Below, in pieces: positions 56,128-56,453 of a DNA stretch of 64,000 nt. The DNA is from Escherichia coli (GTDB taxonomy: Bacteria > Pseudomonadota > Gammaproteobacteria > Enterobacterales > Enterobacteriaceae). Below the pieces are notes generated by a model. The model was given only the letters and a program-made list of their open reading frames with translations, searched no databases and had not been told where the DNA came from. Numbering within the stretch: the stretch's first letter is position 1; each line of letters begins with the position of its first letter. The DNA lies in assembly GCF_030013205.1 (NCBI RefSeq), contig NZ_CP122648.1; one strand, written 5' to 3'. The position numbers and the translations under genes are program-made.

Positions 56128-56453
56128 TTAGTAAATTTGGGACATGATTTTTTAAATGCCGCCTTTTAAAAGGCGGTAAAAAACTACTGACCGGATGCTT
56201 TAATAGAAAATATAAAAAAATAAATTTCATTTTACAAAATTTGAATGTCAAGTTAGAGAAATAAAACTGTTATATGTTAGAAATACTGGTCACAGCATGT
56301 AAATTTTCTTGAGTCAGAATGAATTATATGTGTACTATTTCTTAAAAACTATTGACATTTTTTAGTTGGAAATAAAGGTTAAAAATAAAAAACTATTCAT
56401 ATTGAGAGTTAAATATTACGTATGCTAAAAATTTTCCTGTCAGAGGATACATT

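Follow-up and report, generated by a model that had tools for sequence, protein, structure and literature searches.

A stem-loop maintained after rmlC, a possible attenuator, in the AT-rich rmlC-wzy spacer of the Escherichia coli O139 O-antigen cluster

Background

The K30 element between wzc and wbaP, which Rahn and Whitfield are said to have tested experimentally in 2003, reportedly works as an attenuator that RfaH bypasses. Stem-loop attenuators in RfaH operons are already known: the wzc-wbaP stem-loop is described as an 'attenuator' of the group 1 capsule in Klebsiella and E. coli, at the border between the conserved and the serotype-specific genes (PMC3438125), and in the haemolysin operon of E. 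coli RfaH is needed for read-through of the terminator between hlyA and hlyB (PMC9306574). The ops element is the established loading site of RfaH (PMC9765446, PMC6128206). Non-coding regions in O-antigen clusters have been reported as well; a 2020 review (PMC7685785) counts them among the anomalies of these clusters, with 14 of 178 E. coli serogroups affected, and reads such anomalies as traces of recent genetic events. Here we analyse such a region, the non-coding spacer between rmlC and wzy in the O-antigen cluster of an E. coli genome of the O139 type (NCBI RefSeq assembly GCF_030013205.1, contig NZ_CP122648.1), within a stretch of 64,000 nucleotides of that contig which we call the window.

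The spacer holds one stable stem-loop shortly after rmlC, whose arms are unchanged in Escherichia marmotae, and stem-loops are also found before wzy in more distant relatives that have the same wzy-first module. We give even chances to the reading that this hairpin is an attenuator inside the operon and/or an element of messenger RNA (mRNA) 3' ends, which RfaH allows the polymerase to read through, and that the remaining ~250 bp are filler.

Results

The spacer and its stem-loop

The initial annotation had pointed to an unusually long and extremely AT-rich gap of 326 bp with an imperfect hairpin in it, and this observation was confirmed. The length is exact, and the base counts (130 A, 114 T, 49 G and 33 C) give 25% GC. 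The spacer is rich in A/T tracts, and its 3' half together with the 5' end of wzy makes up the lowest-GC 200-bp stretch of the window (56320-56519, 20% GC, the window mean being 49.9%). Regarding the length, the remaining internal junctions of the same cluster range from -14 to +57 bp. Fourteen further serogroups of E. coli were sampled from the rmlC matches, among them O141, O1, O120, O152, O25, O102, O26, O13/129/135, O18 and O154. In these the gap between rmlC and the next gene ranges from -20 to +43 bp, with a median of 10. The gene after rmlC in these 14 serogroups is wzx or a sugar gene, and none of them has a stable hairpin after rmlC.

The stem-loop starts 30 nt past the stop codon of rmlC, with a run of U upstream and a run of A downstream. 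It pairs from U56157-A56178 through U56165-A56170, five of the nine pairs being G-C and one a G-U wobble, and not one of 200 shuffled sequences folded as well. The fold of the whole spacer does not go beyond its shuffles (z -0.98).

Conservation in Escherichia marmotae

The closest related cluster belongs to E. marmotae (L002 to L004). Its Wzy is 91% identical to that of O139 and the same spacer is present, with a length of 326-335 bp. Identity between the two spacers is 74.7%, with 11 gap columns, and the hairpin departs from this level: its stem arms are unchanged, whereas its 8-nt loop went from TTTTAAAA to TCTTCAGAA, that is, three substitutions and one indel. The arms and their immediate flanks lie within exact runs of 15 nt on the 5' side and 10 nt on the 3' side. 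By simple arithmetic, 14 stem bases would remain untouched at 25% divergence with a chance of about 0.75^14 = 0.02.

The bulk of the spacer looks neutral, because its identity is close to that of four-fold-degenerate sites (71% for rmlC, 65% for wzy and 76% for rmlC and the module combined), because it has indels and because no open reading frame (ORF) is conserved between O139 and E. marmotae. The longest ORF of the spacer, on the minus strand with a TTG start, encodes 55 aa in O139 and 26 aa in E. marmotae, and an 18-aa ORF on the plus strand is shortened to 12 aa. No ORF being kept in frame and length, a small protein gene was rejected, and the conserved small protein that would have refuted the initial annotation is not there. 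A known structured RNA family was rejected too, since Rfam gave no match within the spacer (56128-56453) at any E value up to 10. Taken together with the lack of homologs and the absence of this DNA from relatives with short gaps, these results make the bulk look like filler. Furthermore, the spacer is not recent, since it is common to E. marmotae at ~75% identity.

Conservation is nevertheless patchy. It is concentrated in the hairpin stems, in two blocks at 56283-56331 and 56362-56395 and in the ribosome-binding region of wzy, and the heterogeneity of run lengths is marginally beyond chance (P 0.02-0.08). The stretch AAATTTTCCTGTCAG.GGATA.ATTGTG before wzy is conserved in E. marmotae, and L005 and L008 have a similar G-rich stretch upstream of wzy, with GTGAGT after it (ATGAGTGAG in L006).

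The spacer is not the only part shared by the two species. The entire cluster from galF to gnd (window 52300-62750 against L002:3838-14300) is common to them at roughly species-level divergence, with 86-94% identity per gene from galF to the last glycosyltransferase. Therefore, the O139-type cluster is either old or was moved between species as one piece.

The same junction in wider relatives

Relatives of this Wzy are few, only 14 clusters among 5.8 billion proteins. The module wzy-GT2-wzx-GT4-GT4-GT2 is syntenic in ten further lineage-distinct loci: L005, L006, L008, L009 and L033, where it follows rmlC, L011 and L035, where it follows rmlA (as it does in L012, paired with L011), and L010, L034 and L036. 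The hosts include enterobacterial contigs (L005, L006/L007 and L008, with Wzy ~65% identical), Erwinia aphidicola (L009) and Plesiomonas shigelloides (L010). L034 has the layout of L010, and the Wzy of L036 is 42% identical.

Upstream of wzy, the gap measures 78 bp in L005, 84 bp in L009, 72 bp in L033 and 136-137 bp in L035/L011, and it would be ~71-76 bp in L006 and L008 if likely earlier start codons are used. The long spacer is present in the closest related cluster and absent from more distant ones with the same downstream genes; the initial annotation had named absence from closely related clusters as a refutation of its interpretation.

A stable stem-loop was found in all seven short-gap relatives (L005, L006, L008, L009, L033, L011 and L035; ~70-137 bp), the comparison being made on gaps other than those of L010 and L034, which bear an insertion sequence (IS). 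The five hairpins tested with shuffles had a folding energy (dG) of -12.5 to -17.6 and z of -1.4 to -5.2. When the whole gaps were folded, L033 reached -18.8 and L035 -24.0 kcal/mol, with the hairpin as the dominant feature. In four of the seven a T-run comes after the stem-loop. The hairpin of Erwinia aphidicola (GTAACGAGAAG-TTG-AGCTTCTCGTTAT, then TTTTTTT) and that of L006 were called intrinsic-terminator-like, and both have a U-tract, defined as at least five T within 8 nt directly 3' of the stem. In L005 and L008 the stem, GCCAGA.../...TCTGGC, encloses a loop of 10-13 nt and a T-run follows (AATTTTATT, GATTTTTTATT); the terminator scan misses them because of its loop limit.

The gaps of L011 and L035 can be aligned to each other (z 18). 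Their 12-bp stem (L011:5894-5927 against L035:2901-2931, approximate positions) differs by two compensatory changes, U-A to C-G and C-G to U-A, and by one change from G-U to A-U, which points to selection on the structure of the stem-loop. Judging from these alignments and folds, position and structure appear to be kept across lineages rather than sequence. The element seems to go with the wzy-first module, because the 14 other serogroups have no comparable gap or hairpin. A pattern search with the O139 hairpin gave six scattered matches in unrelated taxa among the GTDB representatives, which is about what chance would give, and none in metagenomes.

Other features of these junctions were observed on the way. 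The starts of wzy homologues are called inconsistently (proteins of 365-413 aa; starts at 56454 in the window, L002:8001, L005:8001, L006:3682 and L008:6001). The conserved GTGAGT (or ATGAGTGAG) context suggests that the starts in L006 and L008 lie 38-130 nt upstream of the called ones, and gap lengths taken from databases are therefore unreliable before wzy. The rmlC-wzy gaps of L010 (4722-5946) and L034 (1902-3000) are 1.1-1.2 kb long and hold a frameshifted IS5-like transposase remnant (Pfam DUF772 in both, DDE_Tnp_1 in L034), which makes the junction look like an insertion hot spot. L036 has an independent spacer of 366 bp and 22% GC between rmlC (PF00908) and wzy (L036:406-771). Homology of the O139 spacer with it was rejected, the alignments giving z -0.5 to 1.1 where a related positive control gave z 18.

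How the stem-loop may act

The O139 cluster is an RfaH-type operon, because a canonical JUMPStart with the ops element lies upstream of rmlB, ~75 nt before the start of that gene. Thus two features of the attenuators of RfaH operons are found here, ops in the leader and a selection-maintained stem-loop in an intercistronic gap. Under the reading that we put at even chances, the spacer would be the untranslated left edge of the low-GC O139 module, consisting of one maintained element plus filler. The stem-loop would act on the operon RNA, as an attenuator and/or as a protecting 3'-end hairpin, and transcripts or polymerases ending at it would leave more rmlBDAC message than message of the wzy module. 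Polymerase that RfaH has modified at the ops element (52586) would pass the hairpin and transcribe wzy, GT2, wzx and the other three glycosyltransferase genes; that RfaH carries transcription across this particular hairpin is suggested by analogy with the operons named above. The following ~250 bp (56180-56430) would be lineage-specific AT-rich DNA changing at about the neutral rate, probably with no sequence-specific function, and the end of this filler would carry the ribosome-binding site of wzy.

Several results weigh against this reading. No U-tract follows the O139 hairpin on either strand (plus tail AAAAAACU, minus tail AUUUAAAAAAU), the hairpin being followed by AAAAAAC in O139 and by AATGAAT in E. 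marmotae, and the terminator scan calls neither the O139 nor the E. marmotae hairpin on either strand. Classical intrinsic termination is therefore not predicted, and the hairpin was rejected as a strict Rho-independent terminator. The stem conservation comes from two independent sequences only, because the spacers of L002, L003 and L004 are identical, and the O139 hairpin has no compensatory change. The hairpins of different lineages cannot be aligned to each other or to that of O139, so that calling them the same element refers to position and not to demonstrated homology. The gap of L036 has no clear hairpin. Finally, the length of the spacer has been held (326 against 335 bp) over ~10% divergence of the cluster and two of its blocks are conserved, so part of what we call filler may be functional.

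For the lineage of O139 and E. marmotae we prefer a weak attenuation or a role in RNA stability; that a hairpin which lacks a U-tract acts on either is an inference. An H-NS-bound attenuator was one of the interpretations offered by the initial annotation, and the attenuator part of it gained comparative support, from the stem-loop in seven short-gap wzy-first relatives and the canonical terminator in several of them; overall, the interpretive side of that annotation was partly supported.

The 3' arm of the hairpin, GGCGGTAAAAAA, shares 7 of 8 bases with the ops core, and GGCGGTAA stands at 56172-56179 within it. A second ops, or RfaH reloading site, was rejected: the arm lacks G8 and the T11 G12 pause bases of the 12-nt ops GGCGGTAGnnTG, and the octamer is common (11 copies in the window), so that we take the likeness to be coincidental.

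Other explanations of the spacer

It is possible, though we doubt it, that the whole spacer is non-functional and that the hairpin is a relic of an ancestral terminator between rmlC and wzy, whose U-tract was lost or separated while ~250 bp accumulated, with RfaH-bearing polymerase crossing it anyway. The overall divergence, neutral-like and with indels, and the missing U-tract are what such decay would leave. The junction also takes large insertions elsewhere, the IS5-like elements of L010 and L034 and the unrelated spacer of L036 being examples, and the non-coding regions in 14 of 178 serogroups are read as traces of recent events (PMC7685785). A mere relic is harder to reconcile with stems that stayed invariant while loop and flanks diverged, with run lengths that are marginally non-random (the P of 0.02-0.08 given above) and with a spacer length kept in two species.

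We consider it unlikely that an internal promoter drives wzy and its module in partial independence of the galF-rmlB promoter and of RfaH. The candidate has a -35 hexamer TTGAGT at 56309-56314 and a -10 hexamer TACTAT at 56333-56338; its -35 lies in the best conserved block of the spacer (56283-56331) and the E. marmotae counterpart, TTGAGT-18-TATGAT, matches the consensus at 9 of 12 positions. AT-rich DNA acquired horizontally often holds cryptic promoters (PMC9765446). The O139 version, TTGAGT-18-TACTAT, however, reaches only 8 of 12 and was not called, no site of at least 9/12 exists on the plus strand of the spacer, and the region has fewer promoter-like sites than its shuffles (4 against 8.3 expected). 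Its -10 hexamer falls within a poorly conserved stretch, and the 70-85-bp gaps of the relatives leave no room for such a promoter, none being called in them. The consensus scan thus gave no support to the internal promoter that the initial annotation had offered, and what remains is this weak candidate.

Improbable as well is that the two conserved blocks (56283-56331 and 56362-56395), together with the U-tract-less hairpin, make up a regulatory leader of the wzy module that is particular to this lineage, for instance an internal promoter independent of RfaH or a switch of RNA processing and stability. If it were true, the level of Wzy and Wzx, and hence the chain length of the O-antigen, would be set independently of the supply of rhamnose precursor, and this would apply to O139 edema-disease strains and to E. 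marmotae.

Quite a slim chance is left to the spacer being an H-NS nucleation site, perhaps also an entry point for Rho, either of which would make the wzy module subject to polarity in the absence of bound RfaH. This would suit the lowest GC of the window, the many A/T tracts and an untranslated stretch of 326 nt within an operon, and in E. coli CFT073 the RfaH-dependent operons are covered by H-NS/StpA filaments which RfaH counteracts (PMC9765446). Nevertheless, the RNA has more G than C (49 G and 33 C, 10% C) where a Rho utilization (rut) site would be C-rich, which makes such a site unlikely. The whole 6.3-kb module has 31% GC, so H-NS would not bind the spacer in particular. Besides, the relatives manage without a long AT-rich stretch.

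That the spacer is what decay has left of another sequence, be it a lost gene, a MITE or IS, a second 3' end of rmlC or a degenerate copy of the leader between galF and rmlB, is very improbable and already largely refuted at the available sensitivity. Its one lead is two colinear exact matches to the galF-rmlB leader, CTGACCGGATG (56187-56197 against 52308-52318) and TCACAGCATG (56290-56299 against 52637-52646). The first is not conserved in E. marmotae, and both are near chance because the window contains 83 occurrences of ten-mers that the spacer also has, further copies of those two words among them. Local alignment scores do not exceed shuffles save in one comparison (z 3.4), the rmlC genes and the gaps of the relatives show no similarity to the spacer, no terminal inverted repeats bound it, and the E. 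coli, plasmid, phage, GTDB and JGI collections gave no matches. The particular candidates were rejected accordingly. The decayed leader copy stays at the k-mer background, with its two 10-11-mers as a weak lead only. A likeness seen by eye (GTCACAG... and GTCAGA...TTTCTT against the L005 gap) had suggested a duplicate, since decayed, of the 3' end of rmlC or of the relatives' short gap, and its alignments are no better than shuffles (z <=0). A mobile element or repeat (REP/BIME, ERIC, MITE or IS remnant) was rejected on the single copy, the lack of inverted repeats and the absence of plasmid and phage matches, where searches with the spacer returned AT-rich chance matches only (E >=0.09). The window holds no long repeats, no trace of a gene, IS or repeat was detectable in the spacer, and a 23-mer and a 20-mer conserved in it had no match in GTDB representatives or JGI metagenomes.

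Where the shared rml block ends

The initial annotation had placed the junction between the conserved rml block and the serotype-specific block at the spacer. Actually the similarity breaks at ~56046, inside rmlC. The O139 rmlC is 82-98% identical (mostly 93-98%) to those of O141, O1 and O152 up to alignment column 450 (~56046), and the last 80-100 nt are 35-60% identical; with blastn, the matches from other serogroups reach query positions 449-474 and no further, and GC drops at this junction from 46% to 30%. The border of the shared block thus lies ~80 bp before the rmlC stop and the spacer is part of the serotype-specific low-GC block, not the scar itself. Work from the Reeves laboratory is reported to show that rml 3' ends travel with the O-specific genes, which fits a junction inside rmlC. 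The recombination scar proposed in the initial annotation is partly supported: the region lies at the edge of the serotype-specific block, but the junction is inside rmlC, the spacer is old DNA shared with E. marmotae (75%), and no remnant was detectable in it.

Cluster layout and feature coordinates

The window contains the colanic-acid cluster, galF and a complete O-antigen cluster of the E. coli O139 type, with the order rmlB-rmlD-rmlA-rmlC, wzy, GT2, wzx, GT4, GT4, GT2 and then gnd. In RefSeq the spacer is flanked by rfbC on one side and by wzy, 'O139 family O-antigen polymerase', on the other. The latter is gene 1 of a six-gene serotype-specific module that ends at ~62750, and its product has a weak Pfam Wzy_C match, under the curated cut-off. 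Of 5426 complete E. coli genomes, 19 match region 56100-56480 by megablast, with identities of >=99.5%. All 19 are annotated with an 'O139 family O-antigen polymerase', most are of pig origin, and none has an annotated feature in the spacer. The spacer occurs in one copy per genome, in O139 strains only, and is absent from non-O139 E. coli genomes. Being particular to the O139-type cluster (these 19 genomes plus E. marmotae), it is a possible typing target.

Two canonical JUMPStart/ops elements (...GCCAGGGGCGGTAGCGTG) are present in the window, one upstream of wza in the colanic-acid cluster (28455-28492) and one upstream of rmlB (52560-52597). GGCGGTAG has six copies in the window against 1.3 expected. 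The features are collected in Table 1.

Table 1. Features at and around the rmlC-wzy junction, in window coordinates
Feature	Coordinates	Strand	Basis or remarks
ops element GGCGGTAGCGTG in 39-bp JUMPStart, galF-rmlB leader	52586..52597	+	exact match
rmlC (rfbC), dTDP-4-dehydrorhamnose 3,5-epimerase, 176 aa	55597..56127	+	ORF; Pfam PF00908 E 8.6e-79; RefSeq
O139-specific AT-rich rmlC 3' end; left edge is the junction with the rml block shared among serogroups	56046..56127	+	identity and GC drop
Non-coding spacer, 326 bp, 25% GC	56128..56453	.	between rmlC and wzy ORFs
Stem-loop, 9 bp, loop UUAA, GC-rich core GCCGCC/GGCGGU	56157..56178	+	dG -13.8 kcal/mol, z -3.6
Best-conserved spacer block TCACAGCATGTAAAT...CTTGAGTCAGAATGAATTATATG	56283..56331	+	23-nt and 15-nt runs identical to E. 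marmotae
Second, moderately conserved block TTTTTAGTTGGAAA.AAA.G.TAAAAATAAAAA	56362..56395	+	80-88% identity, 25-column windows
wzy translation-initiation region; Shine-Dalgarno GAGGA 56443-56447, 6 nt before GTG 56454	56430..56453	+	sequence
wzy, O139-family O-antigen polymerase, 412 aa, GTG start	56454..57692	+	ORF; RefSeq

Discussion

What may be new here is modest and comes from sequence comparison. A maintained stem-loop appears to accompany the wzy-first module across Enterobacterales, and the version of O139 and E. marmotae has no U-tract and is followed by ~250 bp of AT-rich DNA that looks neutral. Otherwise this is an ordinary finding, a non-coding junction that belongs to a low-GC block of genes acquired horizontally.

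If the attenuator reading is true, wzy-first O-antigen clusters hold a valve that separates the abundant RmlBDAC enzymes from the low-abundance Wzy, Wzx and glycosyltransferases. This design is known from the operons of haemolysin and of the group 1 capsule, and inside an O-antigen operon it would be a concrete obstacle for RfaH to overcome.

Regarding the non-coding anomalies described in PMC7685785, the O139 spacer resembles them in being a long non-coding stretch in an otherwise tight O-antigen cluster, and differs from them in not being recent, given the ~75% identity in E. marmotae. The hlyA-hlyB terminator belongs to another operon with another biology and its activity was shown experimentally, whereas the O139 hairpin has no U-tract and is read from sequence. 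Both, however, are stem-loops between cistrons of an operon that has ops and depends on RfaH, and the former uncouples upstream from downstream genes when RfaH is missing (PMC9306574). The likeness to the wzc-wbaP stem-loop includes the position: each is an intergenic hairpin in a polysaccharide operon with JUMPStart/ops, at the border between a conserved 5' block and a serotype-specific 3' block. The capsule element is described as Rho-independent-like, whereas that of O139 has no U-tract, and ~250 bp of additional AT-rich DNA come after it; the flanking genes are wzc and wbaP in one case and rmlC and wzy in the other, with no sequence similarity. The terminators of L009, L006, L005 and L008 have T-runs in gaps of ~71-84 bp, whereas O139 and E. 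marmotae have an A-rich tail in a 326-bp gap that cannot be aligned to them. Yet these terminators also stand 15-30 nt after the rmlC stop, have a similar stability, are followed by a homologous wzy and belong to the same module.

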